64,000 bases of DNA from a virus, in the IMG/VR virus record IMGVR_UViG_3300014720_002669. One strand, 5' to 3'. The position numbers and the translations under genes are program-made. How positions within the stretch are numbered: the first letter of the stretch is position 1; every line of letters starts with the position of its first letter. This document shows, in pieces, positions 55,726-63,713 of this stretch. The notes below the pieces were generated by a model, which saw only the letters and a list, made by a program, of their open reading frames with translations, did no database searches and was not told the origin of the DNA.

Positions 55726-56109
55726 ATGCGTAAATTATTATTTGGTTTGATATTAATATCTGGTTCTGTACTAGCACAAGATGTGTATGTGGTCAGCATC
55801 CAGCCCAGATACGTCACTGTACAACAGCAACAATGCCGTACTGTTGAGGTGTATCAAGACAACAGCAATGTGGGCACTGTGATTGGTGCTCTGGCTGGTG
55901 GGGTTATTGGACATCACATGGGGTCGGGCAATGTAGGCACCATACTGGGCACTGGCATAGGTGCCACAGTTGGCAACAAGGTCGGTCGAGACCAAGGCAC
56001 AGTGGTCAACAAACAAGTTTGTGACACAGTGCCAGTCACTGTACAACAAGGTGAAACTGTTACCTTCAACTATCGAGGACGAGTGTTCACACAAGTTTTT
56101 GGTAATTAA
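55726..56109 (+). CDS. secreted glycine-zipper 2TM protein (YcfJ-like)
   Basis: Signal peptide; GTVIGALAGGVIGHHMGSG. Confidence 0.8.
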   Translation: MRKLLFGLILISGSVLAQDVYVVSIQPRYVTVQQQQCRTVEVYQDNSNVGTVIGALAGGVIGHHMGSGNVGTILGTGIGATVGNKVGRDQGTVVNKQVCDTVPVTVQQGETVTFNYRGRVFTQVFGN

Positions 56110-56174
56110 AGTTATTGCTGTCTAAAGCTATTGACATTTTTGTTGAAATAAAATACAATAAATATTGTATCATC

Positions 56175-56440
56175 GTATGAAGTGATAAGAAAGGTGTTCA
56201 AGACGCGAGTTCGAATCTCGCCACCTCCGGAGAGCATTTATAAAAGTGTTTTGCGGTGGGGGTGATATTGGAAATCGATTGGGCAATCAGTATTTGACCA
56301 GACGATGCGGCAAGGTAGAAGCCGTTAGGGCAGGGGATTCCCGGCCGAAGAAGCAAAACAAGTATCTGCTAACGACGATACATATCTTTTGGCCGCCAAC
56401 GGTTGAAAGCGGGGCAGTTATGCCTTGTCACCCAAAATAG
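56175..56440 (+). ncRNA. ssrA: circularly permuted (two-piece) tmRNA; outer ends approximate
   Basis: T-arm and CACCTCC (56205-56228) precede GGGGGTG (56258-56264) with G3-U70; hairpin intervening segment; tag ANDDTYLLAANG* at 56368-56406. Confidence 0.85.
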
Positions 56441-56441
56441 C

Positions 56442-56468
56442 AATAGGCTCTTCGGAGCCTATTTTCTT
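56442..56468 (+). terminator. intrinsic terminator after the tmRNA
   Basis: AATAGGCTC TTCG GAGCCTATT TTCTT. Confidence 0.85.
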
Positions 56469-57085: not shown

Positions 57086-57114
57086 TTGACTTTTATATCA
57101 ACGGCATATATAAT
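57086..57114 (+). promoter_or_regulatory. sigma70 promoter for leader 1
   Basis: TTGACT-17-TATAAT. Confidence 0.85.
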
Positions 57115-57119
57115 ACATT

Positions 57120-57218
57120 ATGATTAAGCCGAACGCCCAACTGTCCATCGAGATACCCTCACACGATTATCGTGAGGCGCTGGCCTATACCTTACTCAGC
57201 GGGAGCAGTGGTACCTAA
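57120..57218 (+). CDS. putative attenuator leader peptide 1 (32 aa, MIKPNAQLSIEIPSHDYREALAYTLLSGSSGT)
   Basis: ATG at the predicted transcription start; 3' end contains TCAGCGGG complementary to the terminator 5' arm. Confidence 0.6.
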   Translation: MIKPNAQLSIEIPSHDYREALAYTLLSGSSGT

Positions 57219-57238
57219 TACCTAAGTACTATTTAAGC

Positions 57239-57271
57239 AAAAACCCGCTGATTTGGCGGGTTTTTCTTTTT
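57239..57271 (+). terminator. intrinsic terminator / attenuator 1
   Basis: AAAAACCCGC tgatttg GCGGGTTTTT CTTTTT. Confidence 0.85.
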
Positions 57272-57275
57272 CGGC

Positions 57276-57304
57276 TAGACCAATAATGGCACAGATGCTA
57301 CAAT
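57276..57304 (+). promoter_or_regulatory. second sigma70-type promoter
   Basis: TAGACC-17-TACAAT; spacer begins AATAAT as in the 50259 promoter. Confidence 0.6.
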
Positions 57305-57397
57305 AGACACAAGTTAGAAAAAACAGCACAGTCGATTGAGACTAGCTGAGGTTCATTAAAAAGATATCTTTCATATAGCCCTGTGCAAGTCGCAGGG

Positions 57398-57630
57398 TAC
57401 TATATGAAAACACATTGGGTTACCAACTCCGGTAGGTTGCCTGACACAGAACTATTTCCTAGTGACGGCTAGGCTGTGTCAGGCGTACACGAAAGCAGAC
57501 TCGCAAGAGCCTAGCACGCCGGACCCAGTTGGCCTGTAATGTGGTTGATAGACAAGTCCGTGGACGGCACGGTAGGGCAGGTTCAAAACTGCGCTCTCTA
57601 TCAAACATCCCAATGTAGTTTCATATAGTA
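57398..57630 (+). ncRNA. stem-bracketed structured RNA
   Basis: About 22-nt terminal inverted repeat; internal GCCTGACACAG/CTGTGTCAGGC and other hairpins. Confidence 0.6.
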
Positions 57631-57634
57631 ATTT

Positions 57635-57709
57635 GCACGATTCGTCTATCGGTTAGGACGCTGCCCTTTCAAGGCGGAAAGACGAGTTCGATTCTCGTAT
57701 CGTGTACCA
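57635..57709 (+). tRNA. tRNA-Glu(TTC)
   Basis: Cloverleaf; CCA. Confidence 0.9.
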
Positions 57710-57731
57710 AGTTTGTTCAACAGGAGTCAGT

Positions 57732-58079
57732 ATGCAATATTCAGTTTGGCGCATAGATCTGTATGAAGATGAGCGATTGGAAGTAATATCCCGTCATTGC
57801 TATCATCATTGGGTGAATGAAATACGCCCTCAAAGCAAATGCTTGCCTGACGATGATGAATTGGAAGAATTTGAACGTTGGCAGTACGAAACATGGGGTG
57901 CCTTGAAACAGCCCGGATTGAATCCCAATTCAGCCCACGGTTTGGTGGATGACCGCTGGATGGACTTTCCTTCAGAAACAGCGGCTGACAAATTTTTTGA
58001 TTTCTATCGCGACAAAGAGTGGGATCATTGGGCAGAAAAAAACAACAGACGTGACCGTATGTTTGTTTGTTCTCGGTAA
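57732..58079 (+). CDS. hypothetical protein within the tRNA array
   Basis: AGGAG RBS; MQYSVW start. Confidence 0.7.
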   Translation: MQYSVWRIDLYEDERLEVISRHCYHHWVNEIRPQSKCLPDDDELEEFERWQYETWGALKQPGLNPNSAHGLVDDRWMDFPSETAADKFFDFYRDKEWDHWAEKNNRRDRMFVCSR

Positions 58080-58161
58080 AGTTTTTGTAAGAGCATATCG
58101 CCTGAGCACTTCTCCCAGCAATGGGACACTAGGTTCTGCAACCTTGCTCTTACCCCTTTTT

Positions 58162-58247
58162 GGAGACGTGGCAGAGTGGTTGATTGCACGAGACTGTAAA
58201 TCTCGCCCCTAAAAAGCGCGGTGGTTCGAATCCATCCGTCTCCACCA
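58162..58247 (+). tRNA. tRNA-Tyr(GTA)
   Basis: Cloverleaf with variable arm; CCA. Confidence 0.9.
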
Positions 58248-58251
58248 TATG

Positions 58252-58404
58252 TTCTTATAGTCAAGCATCGATAAGGTATCGTGACAGGACGCTGTCACTA
58301 TTCGGGTCCAAGCGGCCGGCGACGGATCCTGACACAACTGCATCGGCTTTGACTGGGAAGCACCCAACGTCTAAATTTGCGTTCTCGGTGCTTGACTATA
58401 AGAA
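58252..58404 (+). ncRNA. stem-bracketed structured RNA between tRNA-Tyr and tRNA-Asp
   Basis: TTCTTATAGTCAAGCATCGA / TCGGTGCTTGACTATAAGAA; internal GTGACAG/CTGTCAC. Confidence 0.6.
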
Positions 58405-58406
58405 TT

Positions 58407-58481
58407 GGTCTCAAAGTGTTCATGGACGCACGTATGCCTGTCACGCATAAAGAAGGGGATCGTTACCCCTTGAGACCGCCA
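58407..58481 (+). tRNA. tRNA-Asp(GTC)
   Basis: Cloverleaf; atypical T-loop ATCGTTA. Confidence 0.85.
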
Positions 58482-58489
58482 GATTTTTT

Positions 58490-58566
58490 GCCCCGGTGAC
58501 GGAATTGGTATACGTGTTGGTTTTAGAAGCCAAATTTTAGGAGTTCGAGTCTCCTCTGGGGCACCA
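58490..58566 (+). tRNA. tRNA-Leu(TAG), short variable region
   Basis: TTGGT tt TAG aa GCCAA. Confidence 0.85.
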
Positions 58567-58570
58567 AGTT

Positions 58571-58773
58571 TTGTTGTGGTGTTAGCAAGAAAAAGACACT
58601 CTACTATGGATTCTTCGAAGGTCCCGGTAGTGTAAAGCACAGGCGGCGTGATTCCGTGCAAAAACTAAGTAATCAATCTGTGGTTGAGTATCCCAAGTAA
58701 CGTACCGAGTCCCGCATGCAAATCCGGTAAAGGGTGAATGGTGCCAATAACGATGGTGGCACTACTGCAACAA
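58571..58773 (+). ncRNA. stem-bracketed structured RNA between tRNA-Leu and tRNA-Arg
   Basis: TTGTTGTGGT/ACTGCAACAA closing stem; internal GTGCCA/TGGCAC and a UUCG hairpin. Confidence 0.5.
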
Positions 58774-58784
58774 ATTCAATTCAT

Positions 58785-58859
58785 GCCCCTGTCGTTCAAC
58801 GGATAGGATACCATGCTACGAACGTGGGGACGGAGGTTCGATTCCTTCCAGGGGTACCA
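58785..58859 (+). tRNA. tRNA-Arg(ACG)
   Basis: Cloverleaf; CCA. Confidence 0.9.
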
Positions 58860-58935
58860 TATAAAAACACATTGTATTTACAGAGTAGCGAGGTCTGTCT
58901 TAAGGGTTGCTCCCGTCAATGTGTTTTTATATGGT
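58856..58935 (+). repeat. 19-bp perfect inverted repeat linking tRNA-Arg and tRNA-His
   Basis: ACCATATAAAAACACATTG / CAATGTGTTTTTATATGGT. Confidence 0.85.
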
Positions 58936-59007
58936 GCAGTTAGTTTAGTGGTAAAACCGCGGGTTGTGATTCCGCTGTCACGAGTTCGATTCTCGTACTG
59001 TACCCCA
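58933..59007 (+). tRNA. tRNA-His(GTG)
   Basis: G-1:C73; CCA. Confidence 0.9.
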
Positions 59008-59010
59008 TGT

Positions 59011-59210
59011 ATATTGATTTCGGCGTGTGAAAAACTCATTGACTATGGGCCCAACTGCCAGGGACACTACTTGCTATCCAGAGCCGCTGACCGGGCGAGA
59101 GCCGCGTGGACTGCTAGTCACAGTCGAAGTCATGTTGCTGGAAGGACGACAGCGTAGCCTTTTTGCTGTGTTGTGTACCTTTAAACGCAGGGCAGTGCCG
59201 AATTCAATAT
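59011..59210 (+). ncRNA. stem-bracketed structured RNA between tRNA-His and tRNA-fMet
   Basis: ATATTGATTTCGGC / GCCGAATTCAATAT; GC-rich interior. Confidence 0.55.
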
Positions 59211-59223
59211 AAATAAAACACGA

Positions 59224-59298
59224 CGCAGAGTGGAGAAGTAGTATCTCACCAGGCTCATAACCTGGGGACCGGCGGTGCGAATCCGTCCTCTGCAACCA
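59224..59298 (+). tRNA. initiator-like tRNA-fMet(CAT)
   Basis: C1-A72 mismatch; loop CT CAT AA. Confidence 0.85.
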
Positions 59299-59344: not shown

Positions 59345-59373
59345 TTGACCTGCAATGGTAAATACACTATAAT
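59345..59373 (+). promoter_or_regulatory. sigma70 promoter for leader 2, with a TAAATA inside the spacer
   Basis: TTGACC-17-TATAAT. Confidence 0.85.
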
Positions 59374-59380
59374 AGGAACT

Positions 59381-59491
59381 ATGATGAAACAACAATTCTG
59401 TTCAATGTCCAAGCCCACAACACTCCAGGCATCCGTCTGGCTGTTGGCCAATGGCTCAGCGAACAGCATTCCAGGAGAACCGGGGTTCTGA
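59381..59491 (+). CDS. putative attenuator leader peptide 2 (36 aa, MMKQQFCSMSKPTTLQASVWLLANGSANSIPGEPGF)
   Basis: Starts at about +1; its last codons CCGGGGTTCT are complementary to terminator arm AGAACCCTGG. Confidence 0.6.
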   Translation: MMKQQFCSMSKPTTLQASVWLLANGSANSIPGEPGF

Positions 59492-59515
59492 TTAGACTAT
59501 ATTCGTATATCTACC

Positions 59516-59553
59516 AAGAACCCTGGAACTAGACACTCCAGGGTTTTTCTTTT
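59516..59553 (+). terminator. intrinsic terminator / attenuator 2
   Basis: AAGAACCCTGGA actagacac TCCAGGGTTTTT CTTTT. Confidence 0.85.
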
Positions 59554-59654
59554 AGTGCAATGGCAACGCGAGCCGGTATCACTCAAAACTACAAATGTGG
59601 GCGGCCCGGAGGATGGGAAGCTAGTGGTGAAAACGCTAGTGGTAAAATTCCGGA

Positions 59655-59721
59655 GTATCAAAGCATATTCGATGTGCCCATAGCACATAGAAACATCCGA
59701 AACGTGAATATGCTTTGATAC
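59655..59721 (+). repeat. 16-bp perfect inverted repeat element
   Basis: GTATCAAAGCATATTC / GAATATGCTTTGATAC. Confidence 0.8.
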
Positions 59722-59752: not shown

Positions 59753-59826
59753 TCCGGTGTAGTATAATGGCAGTGCGGCGGTCTCCAAAACCGCTAGTGG
59801 GAGTTCGATTCTCTCCATCGGAGCCA
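59753..59826 (+). tRNA. tRNA-Trp(CCA)
   Basis: Cloverleaf; CCA. Confidence 0.9.
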
Positions 59827-59834
59827 TAAAATTT

Positions 59835-59909
59835 GGGCTGTTAGTGATAATGGGAGCACGAGGCCTTTGCACGGCTTAGGTGGGAGTTCGATTCTCCCAC
59901 GGTCCACCA
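59835..59909 (+). tRNA. tRNA-Ala(TGC)
   Basis: G3-U70; CCA. Confidence 0.9.
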
Positions 59910-59931
59910 AACATGATATAAGTATTCACAA

Positions 59932-60021
59932 GGAACGTGGGCCGGATGGTAAGGCACGGGATTGCTAATCCCGCGGTGGTGACGAGCCGCTGATAGGGTT
60001 CGACTCCCTAACGTTCCGCCA
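59932..60021 (+). tRNA. tRNA-Ser(GCT)
   Basis: Long variable arm; G73. Confidence 0.9.
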
Positions 60022-60029
60022 AAAAATAT

Positions 60030-60105
60030 TCCCTAGTAGCACAGCGGTAGTTGCGCTTCACTGTTAATGAAGATGTCGTTCGTTCGATCCGAACCTAGGG
60101 AGCCA
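60030..60105 (+). tRNA. tRNA-Asn(GTT)
   Basis: Cloverleaf; CCA. Confidence 0.9.
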
Positions 60106-60122
60106 AATACAAAGGAAACAAG

Positions 60123-60290
60123 ATGTCTAACACATTTAGAACTACAAACGATCCAATGAAACATCACAGTGGCAAGCCCAGGCTGGGTCCACTGAATGTG
60201 GCACAACTGACCAAGATGTTGGAAAGTGCAAGACCAAAAAATCGCTCAAAGATTCAACGTGCAATAGATCAAAAACTCAAAAAGTCTTGA
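60123..60290 (+). CDS. small basic protein (55 aa, MSNTFRTTNDPMKHHSGKPRLGPLN...)
   Basis: AAGGA RBS; read from the sequence. Confidence 0.7.
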   Translation: MSNTFRTTNDPMKHHSGKPRLGPLNVAQLTKMLESARPKNRSKIQRAIDQKLKKS

Positions 60291-60298
60291 ACACACAC

Positions 60299-60372
60299 GC
60301 CCTACTAGTATAATGGCATTACACTGGTTTTGTAATCCTGTGATGGCAGTTCGATTCTGTCGTGGGGCACCA
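60299..60372 (+). tRNA. tRNA-Thr(TGT), weak anticodon stem
   Basis: Cloverleaf; two U-U mismatches. Confidence 0.75.
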
Positions 60373-60424
60373 ATTTTTTACCAAGGAGATCTGTCATGAA
60401 TAGTGACAAGAGTCACAAACCTAT

Positions 60425-60501
60425 GGGCCGATAGTTTAACGGCTAAAACATCCGGCTTTTACCCGGTAAGAGTCAGGGTTCGAATCCCTGTCGGCCCACC
60501 A
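60425..60501 (+). tRNA. tRNA-Lys(TTT)
   Basis: CCGG ct TTT ac CCGG; CCA. Confidence 0.9.
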
Positions 60502-60568
60502 TATGAAAACACACTAATTGTCCCACAGAGGCCATTTCTAATATCTGAATAGTGTGTTTCCGTATGGT
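60498..60568 (+). repeat. imperfect inverted repeat linking tRNA-Lys and tRNA-Met
   Basis: ACCATATGAAAACACACTA / TAGTGTGTTTCCGTATGGT. Confidence 0.8.
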
Positions 60569-60640
60569 AGTGTAGCATAATGGTAGTGCAGCACCTTCAT
60601 ACGGTGTCCAGTGAGAGTTCGACTCCCTCCATTACCACCA
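60566..60640 (+). tRNA. tRNA-Met(CAT)
   Basis: GCACC tt CAT ac GGTGT. Confidence 0.85.
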
Positions 60641-60645
60641 AATTA

Positions 60646-60720
60646 AGCCGCGTAACTCAGAGGCAGAGTAATCGCTTGATAAGCGATAAGTCGACATTTC
60701 GAAATTGTCCGTGGCTACCA
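60646..60720 (+). tRNA. tRNA-Ile(GAT)
   Basis: Cloverleaf; CCA. Confidence 0.85.
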
Positions 60721-60725
60721 GATAT

Positions 60726-60799
60726 TGGGGTATGGTGTAGTGATAGCACAACAGGCTTTGAACTTGTTGGTCTTGGTTTGATTCCAAGTACCCCTGCCA
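60726..60799 (+). tRNA. tRNA-Gln(TTG)
   Basis: Cloverleaf; mismatched 1-72 pair. Confidence 0.85.
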
Positions 60800-60845
60800 A
60801 ACCACGTAGACAAACAGTGATGTTTGTTGTATAATTACTATATAC

Positions 60846-60919
60846 GCGGCGTTCGTAAAATGGTATTACCCGATCCTTCCAAGTTCGCGTCGCGAGTTCG
60901 ATTCTCGCACGCCGCTCCA
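60846..60919 (+). tRNA. tRNA-Gly(TCC)
   Basis: U73; CCA. Confidence 0.9.
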
Positions 60920-60941
60920 TTTAACAACTGAAAGATCCAAC

Positions 60942-61163
60942 ATGGGAATAGAGAGTGCCGCAACGTTTTTGGTTTGCACAATTTTGCTGGGCTCGGGCGT
61001 CACAGTGATAGTGGGTGTGATCTTGTTGATCAACAACCTGTTGCATCGCTACTGGAAAGACCTGCACTGGAATTTGCCCGAGGCCTTGCACGGAATGCCA
61101 TATCATCGATACCAACAACACAATCTTGATCGCAGTCAAGAACCCCCTTTAGACCGGAAGTAA
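60942..61163 (+). CDS. small membrane protein
   Basis: N-terminal hydrophobic helix. Confidence 0.6.
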   Translation: MGIESAATFLVCTILLGSGVTVIVGVILLINNLLHRYWKDLHWNLPEALHGMPYHRYQQHNLDRSQEPPLDRK

Positions 61164-61218
61164 TACTGCTCTTCTGACGAGCCAAGTTCTTCTTGCACTT
61201 CCGATCTAACACTTTTAT

Positions 61219-61296
61219 CCGTGTGTAGCGCAGCCTGGTTAGCGCATCTGGTTTGGGACCAGAGGGTCGGGAGTTCGAATCTCTCTACACGGACCA
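61219..61296 (+). tRNA. tRNA-Pro(TGG)
   Basis: Cloverleaf; CCA. Confidence 0.9.
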
Positions 61297-61302
61297 TGAC
61301 AT

Positions 61303-61380
61303 GCAACGGTGGCGGAGTGGCCCAACGCATGGGATTGCAAATCCCAAAAACCGTGAGTTCGAATCTCACCCGTTGTTCCA
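61303..61380 (+). tRNA. tRNA-Cys(GCA)
   Basis: U73; CCA. Confidence 0.9.
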
Positions 61381-61388
61381 AAAACCTA

Positions 61389-61480
61389 GGAAGATGATGC
61401 AGGTGGGATGGTCCGCCGACTGGCCTTGAAAACCAGGTTCTCTTAACAGGGATGGGGTTCGACTCCTCCGTCTTCCGCCA
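61389..61480 (+). tRNA. tRNA-Ser(TGA) with an 8/4 fold
   Basis: 8-bp acceptor GGAAGATG/CGTCTTCC, 4-bp T-stem, 5-bp D-stem. Confidence 0.8.
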
Positions 61481-61504
61481 AATAAGTAAAAAGAGGAGCC
61501 TGTG

Positions 61505-61669
61505 ATGAAGCCAATCATATTTGAAAACAAAATTACACGCGAACGATTTATCTGTGACGACATCAGATTTCGACGAGTATTTGATGGCGTTGAATACATC
61601 TCTGTACATCGTGAAAACGAAACACGACAATTGCTGATGCGTCTAGACGCACTAACTCGTATCTCTTAA
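61505..61669 (+). CDS. small hypothetical protein (54 aa, MKPIIFENKITRERF...)
   Basis: GAGGAG RBS; read from the sequence. Confidence 0.7.
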   Translation: MKPIIFENKITRERFICDDIRFRRVFDGVEYISVHRENETRQLLMRLDALTRIS

Positions 61670-61743
61670 GCCTCGTTAATTTAATGGTAGAATGCCCTCC
61701 TTACAAGTGGGACACGGCAGTTCAATTCTGTCACGAGGTACCA
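61670..61743 (+). tRNA. tRNA-Val(TAC)
   Basis: Cloverleaf; CCA. Confidence 0.85.
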
Positions 61744-61819
61744 GCCACCATAGCAAAGATGGTCTATGCAGCGGACTGAAAATCCGTGGATCCTGGCTCG
61801 GTACCAGGTGGTGGCACCA
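61744..61819 (+). tRNA. tRNA-Phe(GAA), abutting tRNA-Val with no spacer
   Basis: GCGGA ct GAA aa TCCGT; atypical T-loop. Confidence 0.85.
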
Positions 61820-61866
61820 ATGAACCGTCCAACACAAATTCCCACCGGACCGGTGTAAATTCAATT

Positions 61867-61966
61867 ACAAATTCTGCTGGTGTGTGTTGGTACAGTGTAT
61901 CTAATTGAAACCCACGATCGGTACACCAGTAGGCTGGAGATACATTGGATTCTTTTGAGAATTTGT
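61867..61966 (+). ncRNA. candidate pseudoknotted RNA
   Basis: Two crossing 10-bp stems within a 9-bp closing stem. Confidence 0.5.
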
Positions 61967-62021
61967 TGTACAAAATGTTTATGTTTGACTGTGGTTTGAA
62001 TTGATGCACAGTGTATTTAAT

Positions 62022-62101
62022 GCCCCCATGGACAAATTGGCAAAGTCACTATCCTCAAAAGGGAGTATATGTTCTCAGTTCGAATCTGAGTGGGGGTACC
62101 A
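62022..62101 (+). tRNA. tRNA-Leu(CAA), short variable region
   Basis: Loop CT CAA AA; CCA. Confidence 0.8.
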
Positions 62102-62108
62102 TTCAAAT

Positions 62109-62185
62109 GCCCCGGTAGCCGAATTGGTATAGGCACTGTGTTGAGGTCGCAGGTTTTGTGAGTTCGAGTCTCACCCAGGGCACCA
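62109..62185 (+). tRNA. tRNA-Leu(GAG), short variable region
   Basis: CTGTG tt GAG gt CGCAG. Confidence 0.85.
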
Positions 62186-62191
62186 CGTCAA

Positions 62192-62267
62192 CTCTGTGTT
62201 GCGTAATCAGGTAGCGCACTGGCATGGGGTGCCAGCGGTCGAGGTTCAAATCCTCGTACAGAGACCA
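62192..62267 (+). tRNA. tRNA-Pro(GGG)
   Basis: CTGGC at GGG gt GCCAG. Confidence 0.85.
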
Positions 62268-62288
62268 CGTATAACTAAGAAAGATAAT

Positions 62289-62756
62289 ATGAAAAAACTA
62301 GACATTGATCAAGTGGCAGAATTTATTCGGGCTCAAACACCTGAAACTCGCATCTATCTAGGCTGTGATTCAGAACGTTTGCGCCTTGATGGACACTGGT
62401 ACGCTGACTATGTGTTGGCCATTGTGGTACACATCAACGGCAACAACGGGTGCAAGATCTTTGGTGAAGTACAGCGTGAGCCTGTGTGGGATCAAAAGCA
62501 ATCAAAGCCAGCCATGCGGCTAATGACCGAAGTGTACAAGGTATCAGAATTGTACTTGCGACTGGCCGAAGTGCTGGAAGGGCGTGATGTTGAAGTTCAC
62601 CTTGACATCAGTCCAGACCAAATGCACGGATCAAGTTGTGTGATCTCACAGGCCATAGGCTACATCAAAGGCACATGCAACGTGATTCCTTTTGTGAAGC
62701 CACATGCGTTTGCTGCCAGTTATGCTGCCGACCGATTCAAAGGACTGGCAGCATAG
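62289..62756 (+). CDS. RNase H-like YkuK-family protein
   Basis: IYLGCDS, RLMTEV, EVHLDI, KPHAFAASYAAD. Confidence 0.85.
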   Translation: MKKLDIDQVAEFIRAQTPETRIYLGCDSERLRLDGHWYADYVLAIVVHINGNNGCKIFGEVQREPVWDQKQSKPAMRLMTEVYKVSELYLRLAEVLEGRDVEVHLDISPDQMHGSSCVISQAIGYIKGTCNVIPFVKPHAFAASYAADRFKGLAA

Positions 62757-62766
62757 AAAAAATAAA

Positions 62767-62840
62767 GCAGGATTAGTTTAGGGGTAAAACAGAACGTTGC
62801 CAACGTCCAGTCACCAGTTCGATTCTGGTATCCTGCTCCA
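62767..62840 (+). tRNA. tRNA-Gly(GCC)
   Basis: Cloverleaf; U73. Confidence 0.85.
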
Positions 62841-62843
62841 ATT

Positions 62844-62917
62844 GCTCTTGTAGTTAAGTGGCATAACAAATCCATGGTAAGGATTAGTCGACAGTTCGAT
62901 TCTGTACTAGAGCACCA
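62844..62917 (+). tRNA. tRNA-Thr(GGT)
   Basis: AATCC at GGT aa GGATT. Confidence 0.85.
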
Positions 62918-62918
62918 G

Positions 62919-63620
62919 TTATTTCACAGTGGCCAATCTCAAGGCACTGAGCAAGCGGATGTACATCCAGCCAATATCAAACTCCCACCAGCGTCTGCTG
63001 AGTCGAGCACTGGCAGGATCAAGATGGTGATTGTTGTGTAGTTCTTCGCCACCGATCACAATGCCCCAAGGCACGATGTTACGGCTACGATCCTTTGTTT
63101 CTCCATTGCGGTATCCCCACCAGTGTCCAACACCGTTGACAACACCAGCGGCCCAGAATGGAATCCATAGCATTTGTATGCCCCAGATTATGGCGCCAAT
63201 CCAACCAAAGACGATGATGTTGAACACAAGGAGAATGCCAATGCCAAGTCTGGAGTGACTACTATATAGGTTGTGCTCAATCCAATCAGCAGGAGTGCCA
63301 ACACCATATGAATCAACCATGACTTTATCTTTTGATGCCACATGATATAACACCGCTCCTTTGAAAAAAACTTGTTTGATTCCATACACATGTGGGCTGT
63401 GCGGATCGCCTGACTCGTCGCTGAATCTGTGATGTTTGCGATGTACCGCTACCCATTGTTTCGTGACCATGCCAGTTGTGAGCCACAACCAAAATCTAAA
63501 AAAATGTGCCACCGCAGGATGAAACTGTACGCTTCTGTGTGCTTGGCTTCTGTGCAGGAAAAGTGTGACAGTCGCAATGGTGATGTGTGTTGCAATCAAT
63601 ATATACAATAGTTCAGTCAT
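62919..63620 (-). CDS. delta-9-type fatty acid desaturase
   Basis: His boxes HRSQAH, HRKHH, HNNHH; DPHSP. Confidence 0.92.
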   Translation of the reverse strand: MTELLYILIATHITIATVTLFLHRSQAHRSVQFHPAVAHFFRFWLWLTTGMVTKQWVAVHRKHHRFSDESGDPHSPHVYGIKQVFFKGAVLYHVASKDKVMVDSYGVGTPADWIEHNLYSSHSRLGIGILLVFNIIVFGWIGAIIWGIQMLWIPFWAAGVVNGVGHWWGYRNGETKDRSRNIVPWGIVIGGEELHNNHHLDPASARLSRRWWEFDIGWMYIRLLSALRLATVK

Positions 63621-63638
63621 ACGTTACTTAGCAAACAC

Positions 63639-63713
63639 CGGTCCTTGGTGAAATGGATATCATGCTTGTCTTCGAAACAAGCGGTGGCGGTTCGATCCCG
63701 TCAGGGCCGGCCA
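63639..63713 (+). tRNA. tRNA-Arg(TCG)
   Basis: CTTGT ct TCG aa ACAAG; CCA. Confidence 0.9.

Follow-up and report, generated by a model that had tools for sequence, protein, structure and literature searches.

Leader-peptide attenuators of enterobacterial amino-acid operons include trpL, hisL and pheL, the multivalent thrL and ilvGMEDA leaders and, for a synthetase, the pheST attenuator; T-box riboswitches bind tRNA directly, without translation. The pheL attenuator has been described in PMC3082878, and in T-boxes the choice between terminator and antiterminator depends on the status of tRNA (PMC11404447). The attenuators of ermK, vmlR and bmrCD sense drug-stalled ribosomes and control resistance proteins (PMC5418344), and leaderless polycysteine short ORFs (sORFs) in mycobacteria are attenuators that sense charged tRNA through ribosome pausing (bioRxiv 10.1101/834739). 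In phages, tRNA-Tyr of T5 and SP15 acts against retron-Eco7 and tRNA-Lys against PrrC, so that the phage supply of tRNA offsets host tRNA loss, an effect that depends on the strength of transcription; a strong promoter, and no conditional sensor, is reported for them, and attenuation is not mentioned in that work (0 occurrences) (PMC11555353). No account of attenuation at tRNA genes was found in the literature within our reach, most subscription papers lying outside it. Judging from its sequence and from comparison with relatives, the locus analysed here, at the head of the tRNA array of a large phage, is a ribosome-coupled transcription attenuator in which a codon-matched sensor gives feedback on tRNA supply, with a probability of roughly 0.8.

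The window, a stretch of 64,000 nucleotides (IMG/VR record IMGVR_UViG_3300014720_002669), belongs to a large T4-like or jumbo phage with 30 tRNAs. Its family B DNA polymerase is 43-51% identical to those of Phosso, Atu_ph07, 2.275.O and CBB-like jumbo phages, and a BLAST search against cultured phages yielded matches to tRNAs only. The relatives come from aquatic viromes, and one complete relative is 364 kb long. Just upstream of the array (56108-56465) lies a permuted, two-piece tmRNA of the betaproteobacterial type; because of this type, the host is probably a betaproteobacterium. The tmRNA tags of relatives end in Ala-Ala, and that of the window appears to be two residues longer. Public RNA runs, which come from distant strains, shared at most 10% of words and consist of contigs only, without start, end, strand or level, were not used to assess expression or habitat.

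Two cassettes with the same layout and unrelated sequences, leader 1 and leader 2, precede the two tRNA blocks of the window (Table 1). For leader 1, a preliminary description of this DNA had proposed a near-consensus sigma70 promoter, a 32-codon ORF starting at about +1 and an intrinsic terminator complementary to the end of the ORF, and all three are in place. The ATG of the ORF stands 5 nt 3' of the -10 box and has no Shine-Dalgarno (SD) sequence, so the ORF is probably leaderless; a Pfam search with its peptide gave no match. The arm TCAGCGGG (57196-57203) is complementary to the terminator 5' arm CCCGCTGA (57244-57251), and the antiterminator fold (57196-57251; -19.5 kcal/mol) and the terminator (57239-57265 plus the U-tract; -14.5 kcal/mol) are mutually exclusive. 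The absence of any run of one amino acid, likewise pointed out in the preliminary description, is borne out, with single codons for several tRNAs present. The observation that the first 18 codons are all different is true of the window, and such a series occurs in 1.9% of random coding windows, but it is not a feature of the design, given that it holds in 1 of 24 variants.

Table 1. Features of the two leader cassettes and tRNA blocks, in window coordinates
Feature	Coordinates	Strand	Remarks
P1, sigma70-type promoter of leader 1	57086..57114	+	TTGACT-17-TATAAT, 11/12 consensus
Leader ORF 1, 32 codons	57120..57218	+	open in 24 close variants; presumably translated
Sensor cluster, codons 15-23	57162..57188	+	His, Asp, Tyr, Arg(CGT), Glu, Ala, Leu(CTG), Ala, Tyr; matching the block-1 tRNAs
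Segment 1, CGCTG	57178..57182	+	possible transient partner of the arm
Segment 2, antiterminator arm TCAGCGGG	57196..57203	+	in the last codons of ORF 1; 7-8 bp with the terminator 5' arm
Antiterminator inner hairpin	57207..57233	+	57207-57214 with 57226-57233; MFE fold; stop codon in the loop
Intrinsic terminator (segments 3:4) and U-tract	57239..57271	+	stem kept, loop variable in relatives
P2, putative basal promoter of block 1	57276..57304	+	TG before the -10 box; just behind the terminator
boxA-like sequence	57351..57362	+	recurs after P2 in many relatives
tRNA block 1	57635..59298	+	Glu(TTC), Tyr, Asp, Leu(TAG), Arg(ACG), His, Met(CAT); ARAGORN, Rfam
Leader 2	59345..59553	+	promoter 59345-59373, ORF 59381-59491, arm 59480-59489, terminator 59516-59553
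tRNA block 2	59753..63713	+	from Trp to Arg-TCG; Gly has another promoter before it, at 60807

The organization of the cassette is that of the amino-acid operon leaders: a short ORF, predicted to be translated, overlaps the antiterminator, an intrinsic terminator follows ~20 nt past the stop, a stall would open the switch and free translation would close it, and the sensed codons relate to the controlled genes. Unlike these leaders, the phage cassette would control tRNA genes rather than genes for biosynthesis or synthetases, has, in place of runs of a single amino acid, one or two codons per tRNA for sets of 5-20 tRNAs, and is followed by a second promoter. Because the phage leader appears to lack a stable 1:2 hairpin, the absence of translation should result in read-through, not in super-attenuation. 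Assignment to the trp/his leader family was rejected on account of the missing codon run, the tRNA targets and the lack of an Rfam match: nothing in Rfam reached the gathering score (the best matches were rnk_pseudo with 29.6 bits against a cut-off of 55 and Trp_leader with 21 of 41 on the opposite strand), Leu_leader matched only below threshold, and no T-box was found even at E<=1. As in the T-box (PMC11404447), the choice between terminator and antiterminator would depend on tRNA status; unlike the T-box, the phage switch is proposed to work via translation. The ermK, vmlR and bmrCD attenuators follow the same logic, with leader translation causing termination and stalling causing antitermination (PMC5418344), whereas the codon content of the phage leader tracks the downstream tRNA set. 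A leaderless short sensor ORF is shared with the mycobacterial polycysteine sORFs; the latter, however, carry a Cys run and act on translation initiation of the next gene, whereas the phage leader appears to act on transcription termination, with many codon types and tRNAs as output.

Approximately 370 loci were gathered via the upstream hydrolase gene and DNA patterns. A blind detector, which took as its criteria a -10 box, an ATG, a short ORF and a terminator, returned 85 peptides, 83 of which are these two leader types; a 16-base leader-2 pattern, tried as a search probe, produced mostly chance matches and was abandoned. Conservation goes beyond chance: the promoter, the open frame, the arm and the terminator all recur in 24 close, non-identical variants of the window lineage as well as in divergent families with other sequences. 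Across the 24 variants the frame is open and all indels within the ORF are whole codons, with single-base indels found just outside it. The -35 and -10 boxes of P1 are retained in relatives with a variable spacer, and some relatives have an SD-led start instead of a leaderless one. In all leaders found, the arm lies within the last ~10 codons, in several different sequences: distant leader-1 families have another arm, GGGTCTTTG, that pairs with CAAAGACCC in the same place, and one locus (L143) reads this arm in another frame, so that the constraint acts on RNA. The inner hairpin of the antiterminator is present in other lineages with a different sequence, and leader 2 of relatives shows compensatory changes over the arm, the 5' stem and the 3' stem. 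The terminator type of leader 2 also ends ordinary genes, and with this terminator type as a control the arm score is mostly 14-30 where tRNAs lie behind (n=68) versus 9-11 in 11 of 12 cases without tRNAs (p=5e-6). Among homologous regions, the open frame is conserved and the pairing is kept despite different sequences. On these comparisons, leader 1 is a real and conserved cassette that very likely works as a ribosome-coupled transcription attenuator.

Several further elements recur in these regions. The hydrolase gene has beside it, in one locus (L010, 3394-3465), a phage-encoded PqqA precursor peptide (PF08042, E=1.7e-9), and a similar ORF is found in L279. The loop of the leader-2 terminator (59526-59540 in the window, and in relatives) is unusually long and conserved, with a TAAA[A/C]AC core, and is so too at ordinary genes that end in this terminator. 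Directly after this terminator, a motif at 59556-59610 (GG[C/A/G]AACGCGA ... CACTC[T/A]AA ... GGGCGGCC) recurs in many relatives and is possibly a processing or antitermination signal. Structured, stem-closed long spacers separate tRNAs (57369-57630, 58252-58404, 58571-58773, 58856-58935, 59011-59210 and 59655-59721); they match no Rfam family and vary between relatives. Amber-reading tRNAs (CTA anticodon) are encoded in several relatives (L002, 6737-6813; L040, 1637-1715).

The behaviour of the switch was assessed with equilibrium folding models that assume a ribosome footprint and a terminator 3' arm not yet made. In these models the antiterminator is almost always formed (P~1.0) if the leader is free of ribosomes or a ribosome stands on codons 2-23, and hardly ever (P~0) if the ribosome is on the last 9 codons. 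For the leaders of the window, the footprint simulation places a ribosome near the stop over the antiterminator arm and not over the terminator; for leader-2 variants of greater length, it predicts that the arm is no longer covered when the ribosome is at the stop. Frame conservation, pairing across sequences and the footprint model therefore support the ribosome-coupled terminator/antiterminator that had been proposed to precede the tRNA array. Of the trp/his-type 1:2, 2:3 and 3:4 layout included in that proposal, the switch between antiterminator and terminator stands, but the case for the 1:2 pairing is weak. CGCTG (segment 1) is where it was said to be and could for a time sequester the arm in a helix of 5 bp (P=0.68 as long as segment 3 has not been made; median P 0.75 in the 24 variants), but this helix is outcompeted once segment 3 is made, and in other lineages it is absent and 1:2 pairing has no common position. 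CGCTG shows no covariation because it is invariant. By kinetic means, the 1:2 helix may restrict sensing to codons 16-23, a tentative reading given that the helix is invariant and lineage-specific; the clustering of matched codons in that stretch (p=4e-4) would agree with it.

The codons of the leaders follow the tRNAs of their own blocks. In the window, every block-2 residue occurs in leader 2, which has no Asp, His, Arg or Tyr. Over 8 lineages, a cognate codon for the block-1 anticodons is present in leader 1 in 32 of 32 cases and in leader 2 in 5 of 32, and leader 2 has 104 of the 105 residues specific to block 2 and lacks 22 of the 25 specific to block 1. The agreement of the leaders with their own blocks exceeds that with shuffled blocks (p=0.004 by anticodon and 0.04 by amino acid in a lineage permutation), and in leader-1 types codons cognate to the block are concentrated in the 11 codons that immediately precede the arm (40/88 vs 22/104; p=4e-4). 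Judged by its match in 8 lineages (40/40 residues; p=0.003), leader 1 is kept matched by selection despite P2. The codons also change when the block changes. In L258, where tRNA-Cys and tRNA-Tyr are in block 1, leader 1 has both codons and leader 2 neither, each leader differing by one base from those of relatives with the other arrangement; in L254 and L249, Leu(TAG) is replaced by Ile(TAT) and the leader codon CTG by ATA. The match extends to isoacceptors in L250: leader 1 has Val GTC and Gly GGG, with tRNA-Val(GAC) and tRNA-Gly(TCC), and leader 2 has GTA and GGT/GGC, with Val(TAC) and Gly(GCC).

Among the 27 lineages collected once the idea had been set down in writing, 244 of 262 block residues are present in the leader, compared with 203.6+/-5.9 expected from random phage coding windows; a permutation confined to the new large arrays did not reach significance (p=0.13). 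In a tRNA-based tree, 13.5 independent pairs changed in the same direction, 0 in the opposite direction and 4.5 remained unchanged, the tree being rough and many arrays being cut by contig ends; in tree tests per amino acid, with too few independent pairs, no single residue reached p<0.05, and Asp and Glu move together. Mismatches include Tyr kept in leader 1 with tRNA-Tyr in block 2 (L253), Tyr in leader 2 (L262), the lack of Cys (L184) and of His and Ile (L366), and the absence of some expected tRNAs (L160). The worst misfit, L297, has a second leader that spells exactly its second block. Leader 1 also holds many codons that are not read by block 1.

The preliminary description had interpreted leader 1 as a general translation-stress sensor, such that any slowdown of translation would open the switch irrespective of codon identity. 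A stall sensor ahead of the tRNAs fits the present data, but its generic character does not, as the codons match the adjacent block: where a leader heads a partial block, residues that belong to the other block are missing from it, and single codons are gained or lost as tRNAs move, which generic sensing leaves unexplained. This reading is accordingly unlikely, even if parts of it agree with the observations. The antiterminator is the default fold with a ribosome upstream, so that any stall or uncoupling should open it; several leaders of single-leader arrays, which precede near-complete tRNA sets, contain all 20 amino acids in ~37 codons; and in some relatives the arm lies at the end of a long gene. 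The latter group comprises six loci (L095, 6839-7780; L098, L102, L164, L222 and L228) in which leader 1 is replaced by a full-length, phage-encoded Gram-negative porin gene (PF13609), the last codons of the L095 porin containing an 8-bp arm complementary to the terminator, and a second type of fusion to another long gene (L161). One further relative, L231, has P2 without any leader; with the leader replaced by a porin end in some relatives and lost in one, the sensor is not indispensable. General stalls probably trigger the codon-matched switch as well, as a side effect.

For the codon-matched attenuator, we infer the following course of translation, stalling and read-through, together with the direction of control. 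RNA polymerase would start at P1 and a ribosome would translate the short ORF. A freely moving ribosome would cover the arm in the last codons, the terminator would fold and transcription would stop; a ribosome that stalls earlier, for lack of a charged tRNA, would leave the arm to pair with the 5' side of the terminator, and transcription would enter the tRNA block. With one or two codons for each tRNA of its block, loss of any one of these tRNAs could open the switch, which would amount to an OR gate with negative feedback. Single codons stall ribosomes less than the codon runs of classical leaders. Leader 2 would gate block 2 likewise, and leader 1 would add to the basal transcription of block 1 from P2. 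Candidates for the natural trigger are host anticodon nucleases, infection-driven tRNA decay and starvation; a link to anticodon nucleases is plausible. It is a tentative extension of this scheme, to which we give somewhat less than even odds, that in large phages the expression of each tRNA block rises only upon exhaustion of a tRNA that the block itself encodes, through host anticodon nucleases or infection-driven tRNA decay, in a conditional counter-defence; in that case, the tRNAs monitored by each phage lineage could be read off the codons of its leader.

The caution that a second promoter-like sequence could provide attenuator-independent expression was well founded: P2 is conserved in all leader-1 lineages, so block 1 has expression independent of the attenuator. 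It is mostly absent behind leader-2 types, and the window's leader 2 has no promoter behind its terminator. The sequence that follows P2 presumably resembles boxA of rRNA operons. Leader 1 most likely boosts block-1 expression on top of P2; because P2 lies behind the terminator, the gain from read-through may be small.

A sensor of amino-acid starvation, which would read tRNA charging rather than tRNA amount as in the trp, his and ilv leaders, shares its geometry with the phage cassette and, given that uncharged and missing tRNAs are indistinguishable to the ribosome by an established mechanism, starvation should open the phage switch too; as a reading of the locus it is nevertheless quite improbable, since the controlled genes are tRNAs, which bring no relief of amino-acid lack, the matching reaches the isoacceptor level (Val and Gly split between the leaders of L250), and there are no runs of one codon. 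Least probable is that the cassette is a separate gene for a small peptide or an sRNA, complete with a terminator, and that P2 alone drives the tRNAs: P2 is kept right behind the terminator, with L231 having P2 and no leader, and leader-1 peptides repeatedly contain the motif Ala-Tyr or Tyr-Glu, but the peptides are not conserved between lineages while position, arm and codon match stay, most leader-2 types lack P2, and the arm is missing at the same terminator type away from tRNAs.

The codon-matched layout also occurs in cultured phages. In Agrobacterium phage Atu_ph07 (L383; MF403008.1, 339246-339060, minus strand), a promoter, an SD, a short ORF, a 10-bp arm and a terminator precede a block of 17 tRNAs, and apart from the final two (Gly, Leu) all block residues occur in the ORF; Cys, Asp, His, Lys and Ser are absent from it. 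In Sinorhizobium phage Phosso (L381, 3755-3985; PV764938.1 from 419754), a leader with a GTG start precedes the tRNA array and lacks only Cys, and the tRNA calls over the 38 kb covered include no tRNA-Cys. Applied to the tRNA regions of Vibrio phage 2.275.O and Pectobacterium phage CBB, the detector, which AT-rich terminators may escape, located no leader of this kind. A search of 185,579 bacterial genomes with one terminator pattern, a scope that leaves room for host versions, gave 5 matches, namely 3 phage-type leaders in metagenome bins and 2 without an arm. The contigs with these phage leaders (L370, L371 and L373, from bins assigned to Haliscomenobacter and Flavobacteriales), two of which (L370 and L371) also carry tRNA arrays, are probably mis-binned phage DNA.

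The reasons for which phages carry tRNAs, and the times at which they use them, have long been in question. That the codons follow the leader's own tRNA block suggests that missing tRNAs are replaced on demand, instead of codon bias being tuned constantly, and offers a direct readout for testing this. The range of Yanofsky-type attenuation would thereby come to include tRNA genes and viruses, in a form with many inputs whose logic we have not found described. Because the cultured phages Atu_ph07 and Phosso share the layout, the proposal is testable now, and the cassette could serve as a compact reporter of tRNA depletion.
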